Notes: a model not told the origin generated them from the sequence alone. A DNA stretch of 64,000 nucleotides from Bdellovibrionales bacterium (GCA_965200875.1 OZ241456.1:1600001-1664000); one strand, 5' to 3'. Numbered from the stretch's first letter, positions 786-40,553 are shown. Numbers and translations: made by a program.

Positions 786-1112
786 TTAGTCACCACTCTT
801 AAGTTTTTTAATTTCTTCTTCGGAAAGCCCCGTGCCTTTGCAAAGAACATGCAAATCCACTCCAGTTTTAAGTAATTTTGCAATCAGCTCTTTTTGACCT
901 TCCTGACGGCCTTGTTGCATGCCTTGTTGCATACCTTCCTGTATACCTTCCTGCCGGCCTTGTTGCATGCCTTGTTGCATACCTTCCTGTATACCTTCCT
1001 GCCGGCCTTGTTGCATACCTTCCTGTATACCTTCCTGACGGCCTTGTTGCATGCCTTGTTGCATGCCTTGTTGCCTAGCTTCATCATACGAAGATTTTAA
1101 TAATGGCATCAT
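786..1112 (-). CDS. Putative internally initiated small Rpn protein (RpnS-type antitoxin, 108 aa)
   Basis: In-frame ATGATG at 1112 is preceded by GAGGAGG, at the domain boundary just before the repeat tract. Confidence 0.6.
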   Translation of the reverse strand: MMPLLKSSYDEARQQGMQQGMQQGRQEGIQEGMQQGRQEGIQEGMQQGMQQGRQEGIQEGMQQGMQQGRQEGQKELIAKLLKTGVDLHVLCKGTGLSEEEIKKLKSGD

Positions 1113-1841
1113 AATTCTTCCCTCCTCTTTCACTGTGGCTTGTTCAATCTCTTTTACAATCTCCCAATTAAATGCTGGATCATATCGCCGTATATAATCT
1201 ACTGCTCGACCGATCAATGCCTCTCGCTCACTGGAACTAAGACCCTGACCTATCGTAAAAAGCTCCTTCACTTTTGATTCATCAAGTCGCCAGATATGTT
1301 TTAGAATATACAAAATAGGACGAGTTGTCAAATCCCTGGCCTCCTTTGACACATCTAAAGACTGAATATTCAAGACCCGCGGACGAAAATTCAACACATT
1401 ATCTGCAAATCTCTCTTTTAATTCACCTTGGAAATTATACAGGTACTCGTGAAAATCAAGAGGCCATTTACCTGTCTTTGTTGCACTCTGGTTAATAAAC
1501 ACAGGGAGAATAGGATTTCGTGTATCTTGATAAATCCCTACCTGATATATTAAAAACTGTCTCATCAAATCTTGGTCGTATTGGCTTTTGTGTTCCATTA
1601 AGAATAATATTCTAGCAGGTTTTTGAGAGCTTTTAAGCAGAGCTGAAACCAAGAGGTCCATGCGTTTTTCTTTTGCGGATTTGTCAATAAAAGTTGTGGC
1701 TTCTGTTTTAAGGGTGTTCCAATCAAAAAGTTTCATTTCCTCTTTTGAGAGAACGAGGCTTAGGATATCCACACAATACTTGGTTTGTGAGTAAACCTCT
1801 TTGAATAAATGATCATGTAAAAAATTTCTTTTTGTTTTCAT
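786..1841 (-). CDS. Rpn/YhgA-like PD-(D/E)XK recombination-promoting nuclease (putative anti-phage toxin)
   Basis: HDHLFK N-terminus, RMDLLV...FLMEHKS nuclease motifs, C-terminal (QQGM/QEGI)n repeats and a terminal TGLSEEEI HTH. Confidence 0.9.
   Translation of the reverse strand: MKTKRNFLHDHLFKEVYSQTKYCVDILSLVLSKEEMKLFDWNTLKTEATTFIDKSAKEKRMDLLVSALLKSSQKPARILFLMEHKSQYDQDLMRQFLIYQVGIYQDTRNPILPVFINQSATKTGKWPLDFHEYLYNFQGELKERFADNVLNFRPRVLNIQSLDVSKEARDLTTRPILYILKHIWRLDESKVKELFTIGQGLSSSEREALIGRAVDYIRRYDPAFNWEIVKEIEQATVKEEGRIMMPLLKSSYDEARQQGMQQGMQQGRQEGIQEGMQQGRQEGIQEGMQQGMQQGRQEGIQEGMQQGMQQGRQEGQKELIAKLLKTGVDLHVLCKGTGLSEEEIKKLKSGD
895..1075 (-). repeat. 12-bp unit tandem repeat within Rpn (QQGM/QQGR/QEGI/QEGM)
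   Basis: Repeated ccttgttgcatg / ccttcctgtata units are directly visible. Confidence 0.95.
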
Positions 1842-8135: not shown

Positions 8136-8474
8136 TTAGAGCTTTAAGCTTTCCTGTAGCTCTTTAATTTTCTCTGCTGATACACCAGTGATTTCAATGA
8201 TATCAGAAATCTGCATATTTTTTTGGAGCATATTCAAAGCTATTTGTTCCATGCCTGTCTTCAAACCTTTCTCCATGCCTGTCTTCAAACCTTTCTCCAT
8301 GCCTGTCTTCAAACCTTTCTCCATGCCTGTCTTCAAACCTTTCTCCATGCCTTTGTTAAAAGCATAAGCTTTCTCTGCACGCTGATCTCTTAAAAACTTC
8401 TCTCGTGCTTCCTCTTCTCGGCGCAAATCCTCATCCTGGGACAAATCTTTTAAATGTTCCATTGCTCTTCTCAT
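8136..8474 (-). CDS. Putative internally initiated RpnS-type protein (112 aa)
   Basis: In-frame ATG at 8474 is preceded by AAGGGGGAAGAG. Confidence 0.5.
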   Translation of the reverse strand: MRRAMEHLKDLSQDEDLRREEEAREKFLRDQRAEKAYAFNKGMEKGLKTGMEKGLKTGMEKGLKTGMEKGLKTGMEQIALNMLQKNMQISDIIEITGVSAEKIKELQESLKL

Positions 8475-9158
8475 CTCTTCCCCCTTACTCGTTGATAATA
8501 TATCCCACTCTCTTTTTCCTATGTGGCAGGACTCTTTTAAAAGATAGCACCATAAGTCCCGCAAATCAACTATCTCCTTCAGACTCTCTGGCCTCGCTCT
8601 CATAAACTTACTTAATTCCACAAACACTATCTTTTCATCATCGATCAAGGAAGAATGTGGATCTTTATCCGATCGCAAAGAAAAGGAATTGATAAAATCT
8701 CTATACTTTTTTACCGGAAGAACATCAAAGTCTGTGAAAACCAAAGAATATGCAGGGCAAATACTGCTGTAATCTGCTGACTTCTTTAAACTCTCCGTGT
8801 AAAGTCTAGACCAATAAAAAAGCACTCTTTTCAAAAAACCTATTTTTAAGACAGACTGTATTTCCACATTCACAGTTTCTCCGGTACTGAGTCTTATTCT
8901 CAAATCCAGAACAATTTGCTTGTTGTCTGCCAAAGAGGGATAAAGGGAGCTATCTAAGAGAGTTAATGTTTCTTCATCAACAAGGGAATCCAATGCTTTT
9001 TTATCTCCTATAAAGGATATATCTTGCACTTTTTGATTGGGATGAAGGGGTAAAAAGGCATTTAAAAGAGATTTCAGGACTTCTTTGTTTTTGGAGAAAT
9101 AGGTCTTGAACATGAGGTCCTGGCTTAAGTTTAGAAATTTGCTACGATTTGTTTTCAT
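8136..9158 (-). CDS. Rpn family PD-(D/E)XK nuclease/putative transposase
   Basis: DLMFKTYF, LDLRI...VNVEIQ...R..FYWS.LY, FVELSKF; C-terminal (GMEKGLKT)n repeats and IAxNML...ITGVS HTH. Confidence 0.92.
   Translation of the reverse strand: MKTNRSKFLNLSQDLMFKTYFSKNKEVLKSLLNAFLPLHPNQKVQDISFIGDKKALDSLVDEETLTLLDSSLYPSLADNKQIVLDLRIRLSTGETVNVEIQSVLKIGFLKRVLFYWSRLYTESLKKSADYSSICPAYSLVFTDFDVLPVKKYRDFINSFSLRSDKDPHSSLIDDEKIVFVELSKFMRARPESLKEIVDLRDLWCYLLKESCHIGKREWDILSTSKGEEMRRAMEHLKDLSQDEDLRREEEAREKFLRDQRAEKAYAFNKGMEKGLKTGMEKGLKTGMEKGLKTGMEKGLKTGMEQIALNMLQKNMQISDIIEITGVSAEKIKELQESLKL
8248..8352 (-). repeat. 24-bp perfect tandem repeat x4.4 within the second Rpn
   Basis: tccatgcctgtcttcaaacctttc is repeated four times plus a partial copy. 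Confidence 0.95.
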
Positions 9159-24259: not shown

Positions 24260-24979
24260 TTAATGAAAAGAAGTGTCCAAAGAAAATGGCCCTGGAGTAA
24301 AAGGGCGAGATTTTGCCAGCTGTTTCCGTTTTAAAATCAACCACAACCAAGCCAGCTGAGAGTCCATTTCAATCAAACCTTCAGCTGTAATAGATCCACG
24401 CGAGTTTTCTTCCTGTACAGAATCATGGGAAGGACTAATCAAAATACAGCGATCAATTTTACACATTTTTGCCACGCTTTGAAAAGTATTTTTTTTGGAT
24501 TTTTCTGAAAAATACAATAATGTAAATTTGGCAACTTTGCCCTGTTTCTTTTTATATACACTCAAATAGTTTGAATTGTACTTCTTGCTACAAAAAATTT
24601 TCATTATATTTTTTTCAAATGTTCCCACTTTTGCTGACACCAAGAGAGCACGGGAAGACCCCATTAAAAAGTCTGGAAGACCTGTAAGCCTGACCATGCG
24701 ATCGTATAAACCCAAACTGATTAAAAAAGACATTAACTTCAAATGCACGGGAGAATCAAAAGTTTCCCCTTTATTCGTTAAACCAAACATCCAAGCGGGT
24801 GGTTTTACTTTATATTTCTTTAAAATTTCCCGAGCTTTGGCCACACGCACCGCTACATCCGGGATTCGTAAGCAGTGAATAAACATCTCATTGGATTCCA
24901 GAACAAGATCATTAAAAACCGCTGCAGTTTTATGATATTGAACATCTTTTTTTGCCGGCAATTCATTTTTCTTACGCAT
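24260..24979 (-). CDS. Hypothetical protein
   Basis: 239-aa ORF with upstream AAGGAG, co-oriented and abutting the ALDH gene. Confidence 0.6.
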   Translation of the reverse strand: MRKKNELPAKKDVQYHKTAAVFNDLVLESNEMFIHCLRIPDVAVRVAKAREILKKYKVKPPAWMFGLTNKGETFDSPVHLKLMSFLISLGLYDRMVRLTGLPDFLMGSSRALLVSAKVGTFEKNIMKIFCSKKYNSNYLSVYKKKQGKVAKFTLLYFSEKSKKNTFQSVAKMCKIDRCILISPSHDSVQEENSRGSITAEGLIEMDSQLAWLWLILKRKQLAKSRPFTPGPFSLDTSFH

Positions 24980-25317: not shown

Positions 25318-26301
25318 ATGAAAAGTTTATTTTGGCATTATCCCCGTAAATGGGGTTTATCCGTTTTTAGATTTTTATCCGCCAAAAAATACTGGCTTTT
25401 GATCCTGACAGGAGCTTACTGTATTGCAGACTTGGTTGTGATTAGTTTACATCCTGTCTTCCTGTTGGATAAAGCTCCTCTGCCTGTCCTTAGCCGTTCT
25501 TCACGACAAAAGACTGATGGAGTAGAATCACAATATATGCCTATATGGGACTTAAATATGTTCCACAACGAAGAAATACCTATTGAAGACATTGTGCAAA
25601 ATGACACACCTCAAAAGTCCCGCCTGCCTCTCCAGCTAAATGGCGTTATTGTTTACAGAAACTCAAACTACTCCATCGCCAGTATCACGCTAAAAGACCA
25701 AAATTTATCTGGAGCATACCGCGTAGGGGAACAAATAGAAAAAACAGATACTATAAGCAAAGCGTCTAAAGTGCTGGCCCGCATCACAAAAATAAGCCCT
25801 GACAGAGTGTATTTTATCAATTTCATGAATAATCAAAGTGAATATATAGAGTTAAAAAAATCGCGTCAAATGACATTTGATTCAAAAACCACTGCTAAAA
25901 ACACCAGTAACAGTTTCTTAAAACCAACCGGAGATTTTCAATTTCAGGTTAAACGGTCCGATGTAAATAAGCATTTGCGCAACTTGGACAACATACTGCG
26001 GGATGCCAAAGTAGTGCCTCACAGGGAAAATGGACGATTAATCGGCTGGCGATTTGAATATATCAAGAAAGGAAGTATTTTTGAAAAGTTTGGCTTTCAG
26101 GAATCTGACATACTAACATCCGTCGCCGGCGAATTGCCAAAATCTCACATACACGCCGCAGAATTGTTTCATAAGTTTAGCAACTCCCTTTCAAAATTGG
26201 ATATAATGGTTCACAGAAAAGGAAAGGATATTCCGTTTTCTTGGAATGTTAATGAAGATGTCGCGAAAGAAAAACCGCCAGCCAGCCGTTATATTTACTG
26301 A
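25318..26301 (+). CDS. gspC: Type II secretion system protein C (TM, HR, PDZ)
   Basis: TM segment, LQLNGVIV...ASI...YRVGE HR domain, PDZ (IKKGSIFEKFGFQESDILTSV); upstream of the secretin. Confidence 0.85.
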   Translation: MKSLFWHYPRKWGLSVFRFLSAKKYWLLILTGAYCIADLVVISLHPVFLLDKAPLPVLSRSSRQKTDGVESQYMPIWDLNMFHNEEIPIEDIVQNDTPQKSRLPLQLNGVIVYRNSNYSIASITLKDQNLSGAYRVGEQIEKTDTISKASKVLARITKISPDRVYFINFMNNQSEYIELKKSRQMTFDSKTTAKNTSNSFLKPTGDFQFQVKRSDVNKHLRNLDNILRDAKVVPHRENGRLIGWRFEYIKKGSIFEKFGFQESDILTSVAGELPKSHIHAAELFHKFSNSLSKLDIMVHRKGKDIPFSWNVNEDVAKEKPPASRYIY

Positions 26302-26404: not shown

Positions 26405-29086
26405 ATGTGCACTATATTTTTTAAAAACCGCAGTTCCGGTATGTTCCTAGCCAAGGGTATAAGGTCAAAACACTCGCCTTTTTCCAAAAAATCCATTTGG
26501 TTTGTTGCTCTTTTTTTCACTTTTTTCACAGCAAAAGCCTACTGTCTGAAAGGGGATATAATCAAACTTCCCGGTAAACGCCCCCCTATTACTGGAGAGA
26601 AAACAGGTGTGGAGATTTCCAAAGCAAAAGTGGAGAATATTACTTCCCAAAATTACCCCGGCCTGATTGAAAGTTTTGAATTTAATGCTCCGTTAAGAGA
26701 TGTTATAAAAACCATGAGCAAGTTTTTAAACATGAATATCATTCTTGGCCCTAGTATAGGTGCTGAAAGAATCGAAATTATCTCCCACTCCCCTATTACT
26801 GTCGCGGAAGCGTATAAGGCGTTTCTTTCCGCTTTGGCTATACAAAATTTAACAATAATCAAAAGTGGTTCCTTTCTTAAAGTCATCAAAAAGGAGTTCG
26901 CCCTCAGAAGCAACTTAAGAGTATACAAGGGTAAAAAAAGCATCAACGCGGATCAATTTCTCACGAGAATTATCAAATTAAAACATATTGACGCCAGCTC
27001 TTTACAGGACAAAATGAAACCATTTATTGATGACAAGGCTGTAAGCTCCCTGATTTTTTATCCTCCCTCAAACACAGTAATTATCTCCGGTTATGGTTCA
27101 AATGTGGAAAAAGTGAGAACAATTATTACAGGCATTGACACTCCTAGTGAGGATTTTACCCTTCGGGTTTTTCGTCTAAGAATCGCACAGGCAAATACAA
27201 TAGCAGAAATCATTAAAGACATTATTAAAAATCTGACACCAACAGGTTCCAGGAGAAGATATTATGGTTCCATGAAAAACAAAAGTCAGGGTATAAGCCA
27301 GTTGCTAAATATCCAATCTGTATCCCACGATGAAAGAACAAACTCCATTATAGCGATGGGACATCCAACAGCTCTTGAAAAACTAGGAGCACTTATAAAG
27401 ACACTGGATTCCGATGAAAATACCAAAATGTCAGCGCAGATTCATGTATACAAGGTAAAATACGGCAAAGCGGGAGAATTATCAAATACCTTGAACCAAA
27501 TATTCCGGGAGAGTTCTTCTTCCAAAGATAAAAGCACCACAAAACTAAAATCCGGGAGTTCCAAAAAAGGTAGCTCAGCCAAGCCTAATACTGTCTTGGC
27601 ACAGGCTTTTAAAGATGTAAAAATCATCCCGGAAGAAAACACAAACAGCCTCTTTATTGTATCCAACACAGCTAATTATGAAGTGGTGAAAACAATTTTA
27701 AATAAAGTGGATATTTCAAAAAATCAAGTGTTTGTAAAAGCTATCATCATGGCATTGAGCACAGATCGAAGTAATGAGTGGCAAATGGCCAATTACTTCT
27801 TTCCAAAAGATGACCAGGGAAAGGGAATCGCTCGTATTGGATATGGCCTCAGCAATTTAGCGGATGTGTTTTCCTTCAGCGAAGGAGCCACTTTGTTTTT
27901 TCCTTTATCATTGTTCTTTAAGGGGAATCTTTTTGGAACAGCTACTGACAGCAGAACAGATATTTCTTCCTTATTCAGAATGAACAACTCGGCAAATGCC
28001 GGTGTCAGCTCTCCACAAGAAATAAAAGTGCCATCTTTATCTTCTTTCGTAAAGTTTTTGCAAAGAACAGTTGGAGCCAATATCCTTTCCACTCCACAAA
28101 TCATGGCCTTGGATCATACACCGGCAGAGGTCTCAATAACAGATAAAATCCCTAGCTATGGCTCAAGACCAGCTACAACATCCAACGTATTTGGTCAAGT
28201 ATCTCCAAATATCGAGTATCAGGATGCTGAAACCCTCCTGAAAATCACTCCTCATATTGCTCCTGATGTGGACTCCATACAGCTGGATATTGAACAAAAA
28301 ATTGATAGCGTAGTAGGATCAGCAAATATCCCTGCTGATCTTAAAAACACCAATATAGCCATCAAAAAAAGGACAATCAAGACTTCCATTACTTTAAAAG
28401 ACAGAGAAACCGCGGTTTTAGGAGGTATGGTTAAAGAGGAAAGTACCAAAACCAACTCAAAAATTCCCATTTTAGGAGATCTTCCCCTTATTGGATGGTT
28501 ATTCAAAAACTCCTCTACGGACATAAAAAAATCCAATCTCATCGTTTTTATTACGCCTCATATTATCCACTCAGCAGAGGAACACCAGACTATCTTAAGC
28601 AGTAAATTAAAGGAAAGAATGAAATTCATCCGTCAATTTACCGGTAATGCAGATCCCTATCAGGAAATCACTGAAAAAATGCTAAAGAAATCAGAGGATT
28701 CAATACAGGAAAGAGACGACCCTCTTCCTGAGTTTGAACAAGACGAAAACTCCATTTATGAAGATCCTGGCGCGAATGCGGAAGAGGTACCCACGACAGA
28801 AGAAACGAAACAGTCAGAAAATTATTATTATTATGATGACGACGAGTATTACAGTGAAGATGAATACAGTGAAGAAACGAAACAGGACAATTATGGCAAT
28901 ACCCCTAAAGACAACTTTTCTCCAGAGACGGAAAATAATATAACATCATCCCGGCAGAATATTGAGCAAAATACCGAAGAACCGGCAGAATCCGAAGAAG
29001 AAACTCCAGACTCTATAGAAATAAAAGGAGATTGGGGACCTATGAAGACAGAACCTGTTACAGAAGGAGTGGAGGAGCTTGAATAA
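26405..29086 (+). CDS. gspD: Type II secretion system secretin with a long acidic C-terminal tail
   Basis: N0-N3 domains (DERTNSII), QVFVKAII, NILSTPQI, KIPILGDLPLIGWLF, LIVFITPHII. Confidence 0.93.
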   Translation: MCTIFFKNRSSGMFLAKGIRSKHSPFSKKSIWFVALFFTFFTAKAYCLKGDIIKLPGKRPPITGEKTGVEISKAKVENITSQNYPGLIESFEFNAPLRDVIKTMSKFLNMNIILGPSIGAERIEIISHSPITVAEAYKAFLSALAIQNLTIIKSGSFLKVIKKEFALRSNLRVYKGKKSINADQFLTRIIKLKHIDASSLQDKMKPFIDDKAVSSLIFYPPSNTVIISGYGSNVEKVRTIITGIDTPSEDFTLRVFRLRIAQANTIAEIIKDIIKNLTPTGSRRRYYGSMKNKSQGISQLLNIQSVSHDERTNSIIAMGHPTALEKLGALIKTLDSDENTKMSAQIHVYKVKYGKAGELSNTLNQIFRESSSSKDKSTTKLKSGSSKKGSSAKPNTVLAQAFKDVKIIPEENTNSLFIVSNTANYEVVKTILNKVDISKNQVFVKAIIMALSTDRSNEWQMANYFFPKDDQGKGIARIGYGLSNLADVFSFSEGATLFFPLSLFFKGNLFGTATDSRTDISSLFRMNNSANAGVSSPQEIKVPSLSSFVKFLQRTVGANILSTPQIMALDHTPAEVSITDKIPSYGSRPATTSNVFGQVSPNIEYQDAETLLKITPHIAPDVDSIQLDIEQKIDSVVGSANIPADLKNTNIAIKKRTIKTSITLKDRETAVLGGMVKEESTKTNSKIPILGDLPLIGWLFKNSSTDIKKSNLIVFITPHIIHSAEEHQTILSSKLKERMKFIRQFTGNADPYQEITEKMLKKSEDSIQERDDPLPEFEQDENSIYEDPGANAEEVPTTEETKQSENYYYYDDDEYYSEDEYSEETKQDNYGNTPKDNFSPETENNITSSRQNIEQNTEEPAESEEETPDSIEIKGDWGPMKTEPVTEGVEELE

Positions 29087-29293
29087 ACAACTTAATGAGT
29101 AATAATATTCACTCTTGCTATGTAAATATTTCAATTTCTAAAAAAAACCATAATTATCATTGTTCCCACACTCAATGGTTGCATAAAAAACACAGTTACA
29201 ATACAATCCAATAAAAACCAAACTGATTTTAATCCCCGGTTTTTAAGCTGGCTCTTCCTGAGATAAAGTTTAAGCCCAAAAAGGAGTTATATA

Positions 29294-30364
29294 ATGAAAT
29301 GTTTTTCACTAATTTTAATGATCGCATTCAGCCTGCTAAATGTGTCTTGCATACATAGCTTTCACCACAGAAAATATAAAAAAGACAGCCTAGCTGTGAT
29401 AGCTCCTGTAAATGGCAGTAAAGTGGAAGGTTGGGTACGTTTTCGCAAAATGGATTGTGGACAAACATTAATAAAAGCCAAAATTACAGGATTGACACCC
29501 CATAAAAAACACGGATTTCATATCCATAAATATGGGGATTGCCGGGAAAATGGCAAATACGCAGGTTCCCACTTCAATCCTCATGACTATGAACATGGTT
29601 CGCTTGATGATGAAGAAAGGCATCTGGGTGATATGGGAAATCTGATTGCTGATAAAAATGGAGTGGCTTTTTACAAGGAAATAGTGGATATATGCCCGCG
29701 AAAAATCACAGGTCGTTCAATCATTATCCACGCCAACGAAGACAATTTAACTTCTCAACCTACCGGCAATGCCGGTCCCTATATTGGCTGTGGTATCATT
29801 GGATATGTAAAACCGCTAAAACAAAAAGCAGAGCTATCCCAACAACAAAGTCATATCATCAAAAAAACAGGAGAATTTCAGTTTCAGGTTAATCGATCTG
29901 ATGTAAATAAGCATTTAACAAAGCTATCTGAAGTATTGAAAGATACAAAGTTAGTGCCCTACAAAGAAAAAAAACAAGTTATCGGTTTTCGTTTTGAATA
30001 TATTAAAAAAGGAAGTGTTTTTGATCAACTGGGGTTTAAAGAATCTGACATTGTTATATCCATATCCGGGCAAGAGATAAAATCTGCCTCTCAATTTGGC
30101 AAATTATTTAAAAAAGCTCAAAAACAGTCCAGAGTGGATATAGTAGTAAAAAGAGGTGAAAAAGAAATTAAGTTTTCTTGGTCTATAAAAGAAGATGTGT
30201 CAATAGTGACAGAACCAACATCATCGGACCAAGAATTGGAAGAAGAGTTAAACAAAGTGGAAGAACCTCAAACAACAATCCCACAAGTTAAAAAAACAAG
30301 TGCAAAAAGCCCAACAGAAAAATCCGAATCAGATACAAAACAAAAAACACCACCTCAAGAATAG
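29294..30364 (+). CDS. Cu/Zn superoxide dismutase lipoprotein fused to a GspC-derived PDZ region
   Basis: Lipobox NVSC; HGFHIH, GSHFNP, HG, RHLGD, IIIHA metal ligands; the C-terminal half resembles the adjacent GspC C-terminus. Confidence 0.88.
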   Translation: MKCFSLILMIAFSLLNVSCIHSFHHRKYKKDSLAVIAPVNGSKVEGWVRFRKMDCGQTLIKAKITGLTPHKKHGFHIHKYGDCRENGKYAGSHFNPHDYEHGSLDDEERHLGDMGNLIADKNGVAFYKEIVDICPRKITGRSIIIHANEDNLTSQPTGNAGPYIGCGIIGYVKPLKQKAELSQQQSHIIKKTGEFQFQVNRSDVNKHLTKLSEVLKDTKLVPYKEKKQVIGFRFEYIKKGSVFDQLGFKESDIVISISGQEIKSASQFGKLFKKAQKQSRVDIVVKRGEKEIKFSWSIKEDVSIVTEPTSSDQELEEELNKVEEPQTTIPQVKKTSAKSPTEKSESDTKQKTPPQE

Positions 30365-30394: not shown

Positions 30395-31372
30395 TTATAC
30401 AGTAAAAAACAAATAGAAAAGAGGGATAGAGAGGTGTACTTGGCAGACATCGTAAAAATCAGTACATATATTGGTAATCTCTCTTATATTTAAATTGTAA
30501 TCACTTTCATCTTTTTTAGGACCACAATGCACAATTAAATAATTATCAGAGCAATATTCATCCTGAGTTCCGGATTTTTTATAAACTCCCTGAATTGTCT
30601 GTGTGTAATAAGAGCAACCATCTGGACAATATTTATCCTCCAAAGATGAATTGTCCATCAGTAAATCCTTCGACAAATCCGAAAAATCATCCAAAGAAAC
30701 ACAAAGGTTTTCAGAAGAGGTGTTTGCTTGCTGATCAACAGCTAAACAAGAGGGGATTTTTTTAAGATCTCTTTCACATTCACTGTTTGACCTTTTACCA
30801 CAATAAGCTATCAGTCTTTCATCATAAGACATATTTGTATATTCACACAAAATAAGTTTTCCTTTGTGCGCACGAACTTGAAAAGTTCTGGGGCTTTTGT
30901 CCGTAGTGGAGTAATCAGCATAAATCTCAAATACATCCTCTTTGTCTGAAACTCTTTCCACAGAGTCATCAATAGAGATAGCTTTAAAATCTATGGTTTT
31001 ATTTTTTTTACAGCTGTTTTCTTCCACAACAGCCGGATAAGAGGTAACCTGAAGGGTATAATTGTCTCTCCCAGCCTCCTGATACTCTGTATGCTTATCC
31101 TCAATACTGTTTGTTAAATCCCGATTAAAAAAAGACATGGTTTTAACAGATCTGATAACATCGTTAGACTGTAAGCTCGCGAACACATTGGTATTGCTTA
31201 TTTTTCTCAATAAATCATCTCTTTGCATGGCTGTACGCAAATCCGCATCGACACAGGCGATGTCACGAACTTCCTGGATAAGAAGGGGAGGGGCACATGT
31301 GTTGCCTCCAGCACTGCTTACAGACAATGTGCAAAATCCCATAAAAATATATATGTACACTTTATGACACAT
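30395..31372 (-). CDS. Secreted Cys-rich hypothetical protein
   Basis: 325-aa ORF, signal-like N-terminus, many Cys, hydrophobic C-terminal end; RBS GGGAG. Confidence 0.6.
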   Translation of the reverse strand: MCHKVYIYIFMGFCTLSVSSAGGNTCAPPLLIQEVRDIACVDADLRTAMQRDDLLRKISNTNVFASLQSNDVIRSVKTMSFFNRDLTNSIEDKHTEYQEAGRDNYTLQVTSYPAVVEENSCKKNKTIDFKAISIDDSVERVSDKEDVFEIYADYSTTDKSPRTFQVRAHKGKLILCEYTNMSYDERLIAYCGKRSNSECERDLKKIPSCLAVDQQANTSSENLCVSLDDFSDLSKDLLMDNSSLEDKYCPDGCSYYTQTIQGVYKKSGTQDEYCSDNYLIVHCGPKKDESDYNLNIREITNICTDFYDVCQVHLSIPLFYLFFTV

Positions 31373-31791: not shown

Positions 31792-32307
31792 TTAGTCGGG
31801 ACTGGCTGAAGGCTTATCTGGCTCTGACTTTTCTGCTGGAGTGGGTTTCTCAGGACTGGCTGAAGGCTTATCTGGCTCTGACACTGCTTCTGACTTGGGT
31901 TTTTCAGGACTGGCTGAAGGCTTATCTGGTTCTGACACTGTTGCTGGCTTGGGTTTTTCAGGACTGGCTGAAGGCTTATCTAGTTCTGACTTTTCAACTG
32001 GGGTCGGTTTCTTACCCTCTTCAGGAGCTTTAGATTCCTGCTTTGTATATTCATCCATCACACTTTCATCTTTTTTAGAACTGAGGGCCGCCAGATAAAT
32101 GGAAGTGAAGGCAAAAATAATGGCTGTCCATTTTGTCACATTGACTAAAAACTGATTGCCTCCTGTATTGCCAAAAAGACTTTTGGAACCTCCGCCTCCA
32201 AGCATTCCCAAGGCACCACCATCTCCTCCTTTAGGATCCTGGAGCAGGATAAATAACACCATAATAACGGAAACAATAATATGCACTATAGCCAAAAATG
32301 TAAACAT
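31792..32307 (-). CDS. secG: Preprotein translocase subunit SecG with a repetitive tail
   Basis: TM-LLQDPKGG...GGGGSKSLFG...TKWTAIIF-TM. Confidence 0.92.
   Translation of the reverse strand: MFTFLAIVHIIVSVIMVLFILLQDPKGGDGGALGMLGGGGSKSLFGNTGGNQFLVNVTKWTAIIFAFTSIYLAALSSKKDESVMDEYTKQESKAPEEGKKPTPVEKSELDKPSASPEKPKPATVSEPDKPSASPEKPKSEAVSEPDKPSASPEKPTPAEKSEPDKPSASPD
31795..32010 (-). repeat. 54-bp (18-aa) tandem repeat x4 in the SecG tail
   Basis: ggactggctgaaggcttatct at 31799, 31853, 31907 and 31961. Confidence 0.95.
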
Positions 32308-34963: not shown

Positions 34964-36488
<1,525 letters not shown>

Positions 36489-37514: not shown

Positions 37515-38399
37515 TTATTTTTTTTTAACAACAAATCCACTTATAGTTAAATAAGTCGCCAAGGTCGGATCAATTTTCGCACCGCGCAAATTCGCTCCGC
37601 GTAACTTCGCACCGCGCAAATTCGCTCCGCGTAACTTCGCACCGCGCAAATTCACATTGCGTAACTTCGCATAGCTCAAATCCGCAAAACCTAACTTCAC
37701 CTCACGCAAATCCGCAGAACTTAACTTCGCACTGCGTAAATCCACCTGACGCAAATTCGCAGAACGCAAATCCACATAACGCAAATCCACCTTGCGCAAG
37801 TACGCACCCTGCAAATCTGCAGAACGCAAATTCTCATCAAACAAAATCGCAAAACGCAAATTCGCTCCCTGCAAATTCGCAGAACGCAAATCCGCACCAT
37901 GAAAAATTGCCTCGCGTAAATTCGCAGAACGCAAATCCGCCTTCTGTAAATTCGCTCCTTGTAAATCCGCACCATGCAAATTCGCAGAACGCAAATCCAC
38001 TTCGCCAGTCAAATCCGCTCCTTGCAAATCCGCAGAGCGTAACTTCGCACCACGCAAATCCGCAGAGTGTAACTTCGCCCTTTGCAAATTCGCGCGTTAT
38101 AAAATCGCAGAACGCAAATCCGCCTTCTGTAAATTCGCATCAAACAACTTCGCTCCTGATAAATTCGCAGAGTGCCAATTCGCGCCACGCAAATCCGCGC
38201 CTGATAAATCCGCATTGGTTAAATTGCAAGAGTGAGCAGACTTCTTTTTTATATATTCTCTATAATTTTTGATATTACATCCGGGAGTACTTGAACCCTT
38301 TGTATCCTTTGAACCCTTTTCATCCATTGAATAAATATTTGTTGTTTTACAGCTTACAAAACTCAAGCTTAAAAATAGTAAAATAAATATAATCTTCAT
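37515..38399 (-). pseudogene. Pentapeptide-repeat lipoprotein interrupted by an in-frame TAA (38097-38099)
   Basis: ORFs 38097..38471 and 37515..38087 share a frame (SAIL*RANLQRA); lipobox FVSC; A(D/N)LxX repeats. Confidence 0.8.
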
Positions 38400-38573
38400 T
38401 CGATATCCTTTTGTTGATTGTTTGAAAAATTTTACCAAAAAAACTAAAAGAAAAATAGCTTTCAAAGGCAATAGTGTAATCTTTTACCTTTTAGAGCTGG
38501 TTTTTTATTAGTGTTTCTTTTAAAATCCTGTTCTTGACCCCCAAAATTTGGCTACCTTCTAAAAGGAGGTAAA

Positions 38574-38960
38574 ATGGATAGATTTTCCAAAAAGGTTTCA
38601 AAAAATCAAAGATTTTTGATACTTTCAGAGCATTTTCAAGGTGGTCTCAGTATTTCCGAATTATCACGGAAGTATCAGATTCAAGCCGCAACTATTTATC
38701 AATGGAGGAGAGAGAAAATGCGCAGAGAAAAGAAAGCAACAGGATTAGACCAAGAGGAATTGCTTTTAGAGATAAATCGTTTAAAGGTGGAGAACTCTCG
38801 TTTAAAGCATACTGTAGCTGATCAAGCATTGGATATCACCACTCTTAAGCAATGGAATGAGTTTATGAAAAAAAAGTGGAGGGAAGAAAAACTGAATTTG
38901 CAAAAGAGTTTATCATCCACTGCTCAGCGATCTGCTGTAAAAAAAGATTTTGTGAGTTAA
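38574..38960 (+). CDS. IS3-family OrfA (HTH)
   Basis: SISELSRKYQIQAATIYQWR HTH followed by a coiled coil; A AAA AAG slippery site at 38870-38876. Confidence 0.88.
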   Translation: MDRFSKKVSKNQRFLILSEHFQGGLSISELSRKYQIQAATIYQWRREKMRREKKATGLDQEELLLEINRLKVENSRLKHTVADQALDITTLKQWNEFMKKKWREEKLNLQKSLSSTAQRSAVKKDFVS

Positions 38961-39760
38961 TAGGGATTCATCCAAAGTCTCTTTACAAAGTGAGTGAGAG
39001 GAGAAGTGTTAAGATGAAGATAAAGGATAAAGATAAGCAAATTTTATCAGGGATAAGAGCTGTGATAAAGGATCGTCCCACTTATGGTTACAAGCGTGTA
39101 ACGGCTCTTTACAACAAGGAGAGGGTTTTAAAGGGTTTAAGCAAGTATAATAAGAAGCGTATTTATCGTGTAATGAAAGAAAATGGCCTTTTGTTACCCA
39201 AAGCTGTCAGCAGAAGGGAAGGGCATAAGAGTACAGGAAAAGTGATGACATTGTATTCCAATACGAGGTGGTGTTCTGATTGTTTTGAAATTCATTGTTT
39301 TAATGGAGAGAAGGTGTATGTTTCTTTTGTGTTAGACACATGTGACAGGGAGATTTTAAGCTTTACGGCGTCGTTAAAGCCTCTTTTATCAGAAGACATA
39401 CAGGGTTTGATGATTAGTGCTGTAGAAGGGCGATTTGATGCTTGTCGAACAAATAGAGAGATTGAATTTTTATCGGATCGAGGGAGTATTTACAGAGCGT
39501 ATAATGTGCAGGTATTGGCCCGCCAGCTGGGTTTAAAGCCTTGTTTTACGAGGGCTTACAGTCCAGAGAGTAATGGTATGGCAGAGGCTTTTGTAAAGAC
39601 AATAAAACGAGATTATGTGTATGTGAATGACTGCTCCTGTGCTGAAGACACTATGAAATTATTAAAAGAATGGATATATGATTATAACCATAAAGCTCCC
39701 CATTCAGCACTTGGCATGAAGTCACCTGTGGAGTATATTAAATCAACACAAATGAGGTAG
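38876..39760 (+). CDS. IS3-family OrfB DDE transposase (-1 frame)
   Basis: PTYGYKRV, RWCSD, FLSDRGS, SPESNGMAEAFVKTIKRD, PHSALG. Confidence 0.93.
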   Translation: MEGRKTEFAKEFIIHCSAICCKKRFCELIGIHPKSLYKVSERRSVKMKIKDKDKQILSGIRAVIKDRPTYGYKRVTALYNKERVLKGLSKYNKKRIYRVMKENGLLLPKAVSRREGHKSTGKVMTLYSNTRWCSDCFEIHCFNGEKVYVSFVLDTCDREILSFTASLKPLLSEDIQGLMISAVEGRFDACRTNREIEFLSDRGSIYRAYNVQVLARQLGLKPCFTRAYSPESNGMAEAFVKTIKRDYVYVNDCSCAEDTMKLLKEWIYDYNHKAPHSALGMKSPVEYIKSTQMR

Positions 39761-39817
39761 CCAAAAATAGGGGCCACTCCAATCCGATCAAACAATAAAA
39801 AAAAGAGGAAATAAGTT

Positions 39818-40369
39818 ATGAAAGTTATAATTGCTTTACTGTTGTTTTTAAGCTTAGGTTTTTTAAGCTATGGCAATCAACCCCAGTGTAATATTGAGAA
39901 TTATAAAGACTATATCTATACACCAGGAAATCATCAGTGCAATTTGCTCTATGCGAATTTGCAAGATGCAGATCTGAGAGGGGCGAATTTGTACGAGGCG
40001 AATTTGTACGAGGCGGATTTACAAGGAGCGAATTTGGCCCAGATGAATTTGTTTGCGGGGATTTTTAAAAGGACAGATTTACGAAGGACGGATCTGCGAA
40101 GGGCGATTTTATACGGGGCGAATTTAATCACTGCGAATTTGAGCTTTGCAAATTTTGGCTTTGCGAATTTGAGCTTTGCGGATCTGAGAGACGCGAATTT
40201 GTACGGGGCGATTTTGAGAGATGCGGATCTGAGCGGAGCGGATCTGCGAAGGGCGATTTTGAGCGATGCAGATCTGAGCGAGGCGGATTTTACTAATGCG
40301 AAAGTTGATTCAGTCTTAGCGTCTTATTTAACCTCACAAGGTATAAGTGGTTTTGTTGTTAAAGAATGA
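39818..40369 (+). CDS. Secreted pentapeptide-repeat protein
   Basis: Signal peptide, A(D/N)LxX repeats; paralogue of 37515-38399. Confidence 0.9.
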   Translation: MKVIIALLLFLSLGFLSYGNQPQCNIENYKDYIYTPGNHQCNLLYANLQDADLRGANLYEANLYEADLQGANLAQMNLFAGIFKRTDLRRTDLRRAILYGANLITANLSFANFGFANLSFADLRDANLYGAILRDADLSGADLRRAILSDADLSEADFTNAKVDSVLASYLTSQGISGFVVKE

Positions 40370-40379
40370 CTAATTTATA

Positions 40380-40465
40380 TGGTGGAGAGAGTAGGATTCG
40401 AACCTACGTAGGCATAAGCCAACGGGTTTACAGCCCGCCCCCTTTAACCACTCGGGCACCTCTCC
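40380..40465 (-). tRNA. tRNA-Tyr(GTA)
   Basis: GGAGAGGTGCCCGAGTGG...GCGGGCTGTAAACCCGT...GGTTCGAATCC...CCACCA; long variable arm. Confidence 0.95.
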
Positions 40466-40477
40466 ATTCATTTTAAA

Positions 40478-40553
40478 TGGAGCTGGGTAAGGGAATCGAA
40501 CCCCCAACCTGCTGATTACAAATCAGCTGCTCTACCAGTTGAGCTAACCCAGC
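40478..40553 (-). tRNA. tRNA-Thr(TGT)
   Basis: GCTGGGTTAGCTCAACTGGTAGAGC...GCTGATTTGTAATCAGC...GGTTCGATTCC...CTCCA. Confidence 0.95.

Follow-up and report, generated by a model that had tools for sequence, protein, structure and literature searches.

A Cu/Zn superoxide dismutase-family lipoprotein carrying a GspC-type PDZ domain behind gspCD in a Bdellovibrionales bacterium

Introduction

The Group 3a Cu/Zn superoxide dismutases (CuZnSODs) are represented by the Bacteroidetes enzyme BbCuZnSOD (7B4O/7B4P). They are exported enzymes that exhibit a Gly-Asp-Cys disulfide sub-loop, an electrostatic-loop proline, and a Gly150 equivalent (PMC8382915). The tetrad of the sub-loop is given as GDC[T/S] in the accessible part of that paper. 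Arg143 orients and hydrogen-bonds superoxide according to the accessible parts of two reports (PMC8247289, PMC12071975), and it is very highly conserved, with one Pro exception in the set described in the main text, supplements aside, of PMC8382915.

GspC (EpsC, PulC, or OutC) is a clamp protein of the T2SS (type II secretion system) that consists of a transmembrane (TM) helix, an HR domain, and a PDZ domain. The HR domain of Vibrio EpsC binds the secretin N0 domain, and its PDZ domain is needed for a subset of cargo via an Ig-fold signal in VesB (PMC12369372, available text). Removal of the PDZ domain in Dickeya left the OutC-secretin interaction that was tested unaffected (PMC9239104, available text). 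PDZ density at the secretin base appears as speculation only in the available text of two cryo-EM reports (PMC6882859, 10.64898/2026.05.07.723501).

Cu-type SODs that are held in the envelope have been described as the periplasm-tethered SodCI of Salmonella and the SDBC porin complex of Deinococcus, which has SOD activity. No PDZ domain is mentioned for these tethers in the accessible parts of the sources, unlike the protein described here, and the likeness is drawn as a functional analogy (10.1101/274878, PMC10828601). PulA and InvL are GspN-dependent surface lipoproteins exported by the T2SS. The protein described here likewise has a lipobox and is encoded next to T2SS genes, and its genome carries a GspN-like gene, but the protein is without the Gly/Ser- or Asn/Asp-rich motif of GspN-dependent cargo, a motif that was defined in Proteobacteria and may not apply (PMC12802150, accessible part).

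The word superoxide does not occur in the main text of a survey of microbial PDZ architectures (PMC6411480). No paper on a SOD-PDZ fusion or on a natural clade with replaced Arg143 was found in the full-text and title-and-abstract literature, a coverage that mostly excludes subscription papers. In this work, we have analysed a window of 64,000 nucleotides (G000:C1:1600001-1664000) from a Bdellovibrionales genome of 1.87 Mb that is assembled in two contigs and 94.5% complete. The window encodes a real, selected, and lineage-restricted domain shuffle of which both parts are known and the pairing was not found in print.

Architecture of the fused protein

The ORF at 29294-30364 (+) encodes a protein of 356 aa that consists of a lipoprotein signal, a Cu/Zn-SOD domain, a GspC-type PDZ domain, and a low-complexity tail, in that order. 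The coordinates of these features and of the neighbouring gspC and gspD genes are shown in Table 1. The ribosome-binding-site-like AGGAG favours the start at 29294 over the internal start in database entry P0001. The lipobox-like motif is shared by the SodC proteins of all 15 genomes in the genus. A Gly/Ser- or Asp/Asn-rich T2SS sorting motif was sought after the lipobox Cys of the fused protein and none was found, the stretch being His/Lys-rich instead.

Table 1. Positions of the features of the gspCD-sodC locus in the window.
Feature	Position	Strand	Basis
gspC (T2SS clamp: TM, HR, PDZ), 327 aa, donor of the duplicated domain	25318..26301	+	Pfam T2SSC 26-146
GspC C-terminal PDZ region, residues 200-323	25915..26286	+	BLASTP 51%/124 aa; tblastn; DNA alignment
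gspD secretin, 893 aa, acidic C-terminal extension	26405..29086	+	TIGR02517, 405.7 bits, over cut-off; Pfam N0, Secretin_N x3, Secretin
AGGAG, ribosome-binding-site-like	29282..29286	+	Sequence; 7 nt 5' of ATG
Lipoprotein signal peptide, end LLNVS-C19, lipidation predicted	29294..29350	+	S-C lipobox-like motif
His/Lys-rich stretch 3' of lipobox	29351..29383	+	Sequence
Cu/Zn-SOD domain, residues 31-172, all Cu/Zn ligands and disulfide Cys	29384..29809	+	Pfam; 7B4O/7B4P; AF2
Lys88, position of human Thr58 beside active-site channel	29555..29557	+	Genus alignment
Tyr163 replacing catalytic Arg143	29780..29782	+	Human SOD1 alignment
Duplicated GspC-type PDZ, residues 188-305, intact, helix 265-276 diverged and more basic	29855..30208	+	BLASTP, selection, AF2/Foldseek
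Low-complexity tail, residues 306-356, plus stop	30209..30364	+	pLDDT <50 at 326-353

The Pfam family Sod_Cu (PF00080) matches residues 44-169 with 127.8 bits against a cut-off of 28.9. PDZ_2 and PDZ_6 match residues 235-295 with 26.2 and 24.9 bits, slightly below the cut-off of 27, and the NCBIfam model NF041515 matches residues 176-299 (E 1.4e-22). Residues 188-310 are identical to GspC residues 200-323 at 63 of 124 positions (51%, E 2e-39, BLASTP), and the matching DNA was located by tblastn at 29855-30223 and 25915-26286. The identity of the PDZ copy to gspC is 66% over 114 codons at the DNA level. A tblastn search of this genome for a third copy of the PDZ region returned only the fused copy and GspC.

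The AF2 model of the full-length protein (22-row alignment) exhibits two folded domains with a mean pLDDT of 79.9 and a pTM of 0.52, so that no fixed SOD-PDZ packing is predicted. The PDZ domain modelled alone has a pLDDT of 86.4, and its three best Foldseek matches are EpsC and PulC PDZ structures, the top fold matches being 2I4S, 2I6V, and 5HJ1. In a second-look structural alignment, 2I4S matches model residues 1-113 (Z 8.6, rmsd 3.4, 100 aligned). DegP and DegQ PDZ domains reach Z 8.6-9.7, equal to or up to 1.1 above 2I4S, over ranges that are similar or shorter, 2I4S being the structure that spans most of the model. The ESM Atlas gave no usable match.

The SOD domain has its best sequence match among single-domain entries in Group 3a (E 8e-36) and its best fold match in 7B4O/7B4P (45% identity, TM 0.82 on target; Foldseek 7B4P E 2.7e-13). 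The disulfide sub-loop and export are common to both, and the electrostatic-loop proline (P156) and the Gly150 equivalent (G170) are invariant and nearly invariant, respectively, in alignment A3. The fused protein differs from Group 3a in its tetrad, which is GDCR (GDCS or GDCT in some genus members), in Tyr at the position of Arg143, and in its additional lipoprotein signal, PDZ domain, and tail. Compared with GspC, its PDZ domain is detached from the TM helix and HR domain, stands on an enzyme-family lipoprotein, has a diverged helix, and is more basic at its surface.

Profile, fold, and ligands thus place the fused protein in the Cu/Zn-SOD fold family, and it is neither a standard SodC nor a second GspC. 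It is filed as a SodC-family variant because Arg143 of the standard enzyme is Tyr163 here. The NCBIfam SodC equivalogs also score below their cut-offs (NF047632, 53.7 against 250 bits; NF007628, 36.8 against 165 bits), both being models of other SodC subfamilies. It is not a second GspC because its match to GspC is limited to residues 188-310 and leaves out both TM helix and HR domain.

Reality and distribution of the fusion

The whole stretch lies on a single contig of run X1, which may be its source, and runs labelled as sponge metagenome have contigs that align to the region, mostly at >=95% identity. The SOD/PDZ junction is bridged by contigs of X3 (29732-29990) and X4 (29621-29930), which come from a second study, and the ORF is therefore not a chimera. 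The same architecture was identified in G012 (P0002, 477 aa) and in its cluster mate P0092 (566 aa, on another contig). P0003 exhibits it without the first ~27 PDZ residues, and the trimmed copy retains a roughly canonical PDZ core. A chimeric join of gspC and sodC in the assembly is already refuted by the bridging contigs and these homologues, and its probability is negligible. Its sole support is that the genome is metagenome-assembled, and two PDZ copies that are merely 66% identical in DNA also argue against it.

The earlier note, made from the DNA alone, had described a Cu/Zn SOD lipoprotein with all its metal ligands fused to a GspC-type PDZ region recognisable at the DNA level, and had regarded the duplication as local, old, and retained. 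It had named a junction not spanned by reads, or neutral evolution of the copy together with its absence from relatives, as grounds against this view. The description is confirmed by Pfam, by BLASTP, by the alignment of the ligands, and by the DNA identity given above. The bridged junction, the purifying selection reported below (dN/dS 0.32 against the genome's own gspC, strain pN/pS ~0.10), and the presence of the fusion in G012, P0003, and P0092 support an old, retained local duplication.

The genus set consists of 15 genomes of 1.3-2.3 Mb. The PDZ copy on SodC was identified in two of them (G000 and G012) and in two metagenome proteins. The other 13 genomes, including the sister of each fused genome, are without PDZ on SodC, and the fusion is optional, as the closest relatives of both fused genomes do without it. 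Only a few uncultured lineages have it. Fused relatives were counted by word-seeded searches that are not exhaustive, two of which missed P0002 and P0003. A scan of a genome collection with PDZ patterns returned two loci, matching G013 and G012, and none of 61 further proteins (P0031-P0091) contains a SOD domain. No PDZ remnant was found in any of the 10 unfused sodC genes searched. The unfused SodC proteins of the genus have tails of 13-236 aa that are mostly Lys-rich. The fused PDZ domain sits between the SOD domain and a tail of this type, and the fused tail is the counterpart of these variable tails.

Several other arrangements were observed in relatives. Many SodC proteins of the genus and of the sister genus g37 have long Cys/His/Lys-rich insertions after the lipobox (CxxC-like, CKK repeats) that are possibly metal-binding, for example P0017-P0020, P0023, L042:9667-10527, L047:7733-8584, L039:6786-7955, and several g37 loci. 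A second, divergent SodC-like paralogue is present in the g37 genome G058 (C24, L178:3904-4770), with motifs unparsed by the patterns used. An order-level relative exhibits two adjacent GspC-PDZ-like matches (G025:C6:72863-73792), possibly a separate tandem duplication of the domain.

Selection on the PDZ copy and its diverged helix

The comparison of the PDZ copy with its own gspC gave dN 0.35, dS 1.09, and dN/dS 0.32 (95% bootstrap 0.14-0.57) by Nei-Gojobori counts, which are rough at such divergence. The PDZ copies of G000 and G012 are saturated in dS, with dN 0.34. Strain variants in the PDZ copy consist of eight synonymous and three non-synonymous changes by single-base count (seven and three by codon), with pN/pS ~0.10 (binomial p 0.0003); they derive from contigs of depth 3-5, and six of the 11 occur in two or more runs. 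The SOD domain has five synonymous and no non-synonymous variants. P0002 and P0092 differ at four of 114 PDZ residues and at 10 of 140 SOD residues, and their tails are 151 and 240 aa long. Each copy retains 25 of the 34 GspC-conserved columns. These substitution patterns indicate that the PDZ copy is under purifying selection. Its branch lengths show that it evolves ~2x as fast as the GspC PDZ domain, which also fits relaxed constraint.

The divergence of the copy is marked in helix 265-276, which we take to line the PDZ ligand groove. One of the four near-invariant GspC columns of this helix is kept in both full copies, compared with 14 of 21 and seven of nine elsewhere. The net charge of the copies is +10 and +8, compared with 0 to +7 in 15 GspC PDZ domains. 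The changes shared by the copies (G to E, H to Y, and E/Q/H/N to K) run along AT-biased mutation, and the seemingly invariant G-to-E site is K in P0092.

Evolutionary history of the fusion

The three fused copies join in protein trees (94/92 with 20 rows; 95/97 with 46 rows, two of the three being marked as long branches in the latter), nest among the GspC PDZ domains of the genus, and have derived residues in common. The G000 copy is also without a one-residue insertion that the GspC proteins of G000, G009, and P0025 have. The DNA of the 3' half also groups them (97/97) and that of the 5' half does not. In the RpoB and GspD trees, G000 groups with unfused G009 (100/100) and G012 groups with unfused G003 (90/86 and 100/100), and both trees reject G000 and G012 as sisters. 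One origin would thus require two losses or more, with as many as five on the best RpoB tree.

Other signals relate each copy to its own lineage. In synonymous codon sharing corrected for codon usage, the own gspC ranks first of 16 for the G000 and G012 copies, the G000 copy scoring nearly equally with the G012 gspC. P0003 shares three rare residues with P0044, which is tentatively taken as its own GspC, but the own GspC ranks only 5th, 3rd, and 3rd of 36 in the overall rare-residue score. The AU tests of own-lineage placement gave p 0.19, 0.22, and 0.047 (0.11, 0.038, and 0.018 with a smaller set), and a test for mosaic breakpoints was of borderline significance (p 0.07, 0.29, 0.18, and 0.03 for four quartets). 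One origin with gene conversion and losses has about an even chance of being correct. Repeated duplications with convergence are a possible but less probable history, and the spread of one origin by transfer is quite unlikely.

The SOD domain and the replacement of Arg143

The Cu ligands (H76, H78, H93, and H146), the Zn ligands (H93, H101, H110, and D113), and the disulfide pair (C83 and C166) are all present. Y163 aligns to human Arg143. This position is Tyr in 14 of the 15 genus genomes and Phe in the remaining one (G004), and all 16 metagenome proteins of the clade likewise have Tyr. Arg occupies it in each of the 10 g37 rows and in 22 of the 25 rows from elsewhere in the family (three not parsed); these are the rows that patterns recovered from loci fetched for only some of the 63 other SodC-bearing genomes of the family. 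In a control of at least 80 metagenome SodC loci, the matches listed consist of 70 Arg, one Lys, and nine not parsed, with no member of the genus clade among them. The Tyr/Phe clade forms one branch (98/88) that is sister to g37. As judged from these alignments, the replacement is genus-wide and older than the fusion; the Tyr reported in the earlier note is therefore real but is not a feature of the fusion.

Position 58 is K, R, or Q in all 15 genus SodC proteins and Leu in 10 of 10 proteins of g37, which keeps Arg143; this pattern counts as one evolutionary event. Lys58 and Arg143 coexist in 11 of 79 metagenome and four of 25 family SOD rows. Lys88 of the fused protein may supply a charge in place of the lost Arg143. 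The SOD domain is probably a metal-loaded enzyme with reduced or retuned activity. The loss of Arg143 with K/R/Q at position 58 is a second oddity that is wider than the fusion and worth study by itself, and a genus that keeps all Cu/Zn ligands with Tyr or Phe for Arg143 offers a test of near-normal dismutation without the arginine.

Fe/Mn SOD was identified in 14 of the 15 genomes. A gate-keeper role for the Tyr hydroxyl was considered and is weakened by Phe in G004. Modification of the Tyr by a MauG-type enzyme was rejected, as the gene is missing from G000 and is retained in G004, where the residue is Phe.

The gspCD locus and its neighbourhood

GspC matches the NCBIfam model GspC_delta with E 1e-28 and 101 bits, below the cut-off of 150. 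The rest of the T2SS of this genome lies at C1:1.276-1.288 Mb (L135, C1:1275768-1287624), ~340 kb from gspCD, and consists of a pilin, gspE, F, G, two further pilins, J, K, an L-like gene, an unassigned ORF of 382 aa, and an N-like gene. GspE is over its cut-off and the GspN-like gene has 41.5 bits against a cut-off of 50. The gspE gene is present in 15 of 15 genus genomes with 74-91% identity to G000, and it is still within ~12 kb (G013) and ~7 kb (G004) of gspD. Among nine gspC loci from other family genera, gspC-D-E are contiguous in six, cut off in two, and split in one, and sodC lies beside gspC in none of them.

In 11 of the 15 genus genomes, sodC is the next gene after gspD and has the same orientation, with gaps of 71-562 bp. 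It is one gene from gspD in G002 and unlinked in G005, G008, and G010. In the five g37 genomes searched, a long distance separates sodC from gspD or the two lie on different contigs. The gspCD-sodC arrangement predates the fusion and is more widespread, which explains how the PDZ copy could arise.

A di-haem CCP_MauG-family gene lies directly 3' of sodC in eight of the 15 genomes and is present in 11 of them, compared with five of 94 other family genomes. A search of G000 (94.5% complete) for CCP_MauG or the catalase PF00199 gave no match. The CCP_MauG-family protein falls below the cut-offs of the MauG, MbnH, and His-Xaa-Ser MauG-like models. Its place behind sodC fits a peroxide-removing partner of SodC. 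Its members are 600-625 aa long, have two CxxCH motifs and an N-terminal hydrophobic segment, and are 67-81% identical across the genus (L032:11481-13319 in G012; orthologues in L035, L036, L038, L040, L041, L042, and L045).

Promoter-like sites number 22, compared with 15.3 +/- 4.4 by chance, and terminator-like sites number five, compared with 4.5; neither count speaks for or against co-transcription. LolA was sought in G000 and is present.

Proposed function and alternatives

The reading that we tentatively prefer, at close to an even chance, is that a local domain duplication has given an envelope SOD-family lipoprotein a cargo-type binding module of altered specificity. The proposed course would begin in a genus that has gspE to gspN elsewhere and sodC behind gspD, often followed by the di-haem peroxidase-family gene, where most other family genera have gspC-D-E contiguous. 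The variable Lys-rich ends of the genus SodC proteins would have offered a permissive spot, and a proximity of 3.9 kb may have let the 3' end of gspC be copied into it, between the SOD domain and such a tail. The copy has since stayed intact and under selection. GspC PDZ domains accept only some folded cargo proteins, so the copy probably binds a protein of the envelope or a cargo protein and keeps the enzyme near it. The first partner candidates would be Ig-like beta-sandwich domains, including the SOD barrel itself, whose fold class is presumably Ig-like. The SOD domain is probably loaded with Cu and Zn and would act on superoxide in the envelope at a lowered or retuned rate, Lys88 making up in part for the charge of Arg143. 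A GspC PDZ domain on a small beta-sandwich enzyme, with fused and unfused sisters and a diverged helix, is a ready-made comparison for cargo recognition. Several observations weigh against this reading: 13 of the 15 genus genomes do without the PDZ domain and the unfused sodC genes searched have no trace of it, the copy evolves faster than its GspC counterpart and its shared changes follow AT-biased mutation, no fixed SOD-PDZ packing is predicted, Lys58 coexists with Arg143 elsewhere, and G000 has no CCP_MauG or PF00199 match.

Alternatively, the PDZ domain could be a tolerated passenger in a permissive tail, a mere basic spacer that remains folded only since a misfolded insert harms the SOD domain. 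We consider this rather unlikely, although the PDZ domain is lost or was never present in the sisters of both fused genomes, is trimmed in P0003, and evolves faster than that of GspC, while unfused tails vary from 13 to 236 aa and low-complexity ends occur on 26 of the 1142 long ORFs of C1 (raw ORF calls). A stop codon at the end of the SOD domain is tolerated, as G007 and G010 with their tails of 13-14 aa show, so a useless PDZ domain could be shed at once; the copy has nevertheless persisted past dS >1, is still constrained among strains today, and between P0002 and P0092 is no less conserved than the SOD domain. The enzyme could also be something other than a dismutase, namely a copper store or chaperone with its channel plugged by the aromatic residue, which the PDZ domain brings to exported cuproproteins or other cargo. 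The superoxide-orienting role of Arg143 and its near-invariance elsewhere (70 Arg, one Lys, and nine unparsed among at least 80 loci), the Phe of G004, which means that the hydroxyl is not required, the His-rich and Cys-rich N-terminal extensions common in the clade, and the Fe/Mn SOD of 14 genomes all fit this. It is nonetheless improbable, as the metal-bridging His93, the complete Zn site, and both disulfide cysteines are retained, position 58 is K, R, or Q throughout the genus, and the peroxidase-family linkage in eight of 15 genomes fits a chain from superoxide to peroxide to water.

The earlier note had suggested a tether to the secretion machine and possibly a T2SS accessory, by which the fused PDZ domain would join the GspC cage or the secretin base and park a SOD or copper-handling domain there. 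The same-strand position of sodC directly behind gspD in 11 genomes, the complete T2SS with gspE in every genus genome, the possible PDZ density in the available text of the cryo-EM papers, and the rare residues shared with the own GspC, as co-adaptation to one partner could give, are in its favour. This suggestion has only partial support so far, and we regard it as unlikely. The HR domain, where the known secretin contact sits, was not copied, and the PDZ domain is assigned cargo selection in the accessible parts of PMC12369372 and PMC9239104. The GspC-conserved helix is altered in the copy, 13 of 15 genomes run the same machine without PDZ on SodC, three keep sodC far from gspCD, and the gaps of 71-562 bp give no sign of translational coupling. 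A quite unlikely further reading is that a T2SS-client lipoprotein has captured the PDZ domain, perhaps three times independently with convergent charge changes, and that the cis copy masks or replaces an export signal of the SOD domain and switches the enzyme between periplasm and cell surface, the channel of the clade having been rebuilt with Tyr143 and Lys58 instead of the near-universal arginine.

A complex prediction for the fused PDZ domain with GspD residues 72-345 scored 0.00 without control pairs and counts neither way. Co-assembly into a PDZ ring was considered and dropped, as the T2SS hub is PulE/L/M and not a PDZ hexamer in the available text of the sources.

Other features of the window

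GspD has an acidic low-complexity C-terminal extension of ~150 aa (28650-29086), and SecG at 31792-32100 ends in Pro/Ser/Lys repeats; many proteins of this genome have low-complexity tails. The ORF at 30395-31372 (-) encodes an exported-looking, Cys-rich protein of 325 aa that follows the peroxidase gene in G012 and G003, and the ORF at 24260-24979 (-), of 239 aa, is divergent from gspC across the family. Both are without a convincing Pfam or NCBIfam family and are syntenic with the locus in relatives. A 16S rRNA gene is located at 34975-36488 (-), with no 23S or 5S match within the window, together with two tRNAs (40383-40553 (-) region). Pentapeptide-repeat ORFs at 37515-40369 flank an IS3-like element at 38574-39760 (integrase core, HTH_21), and the frame at 37515-38087 may form a split gene with 38097-38471. 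Two Rpn/YhgA-like PD-(D/E)XK transposase-family genes are located at 786-1841 (-) and 8136-9158 (-).
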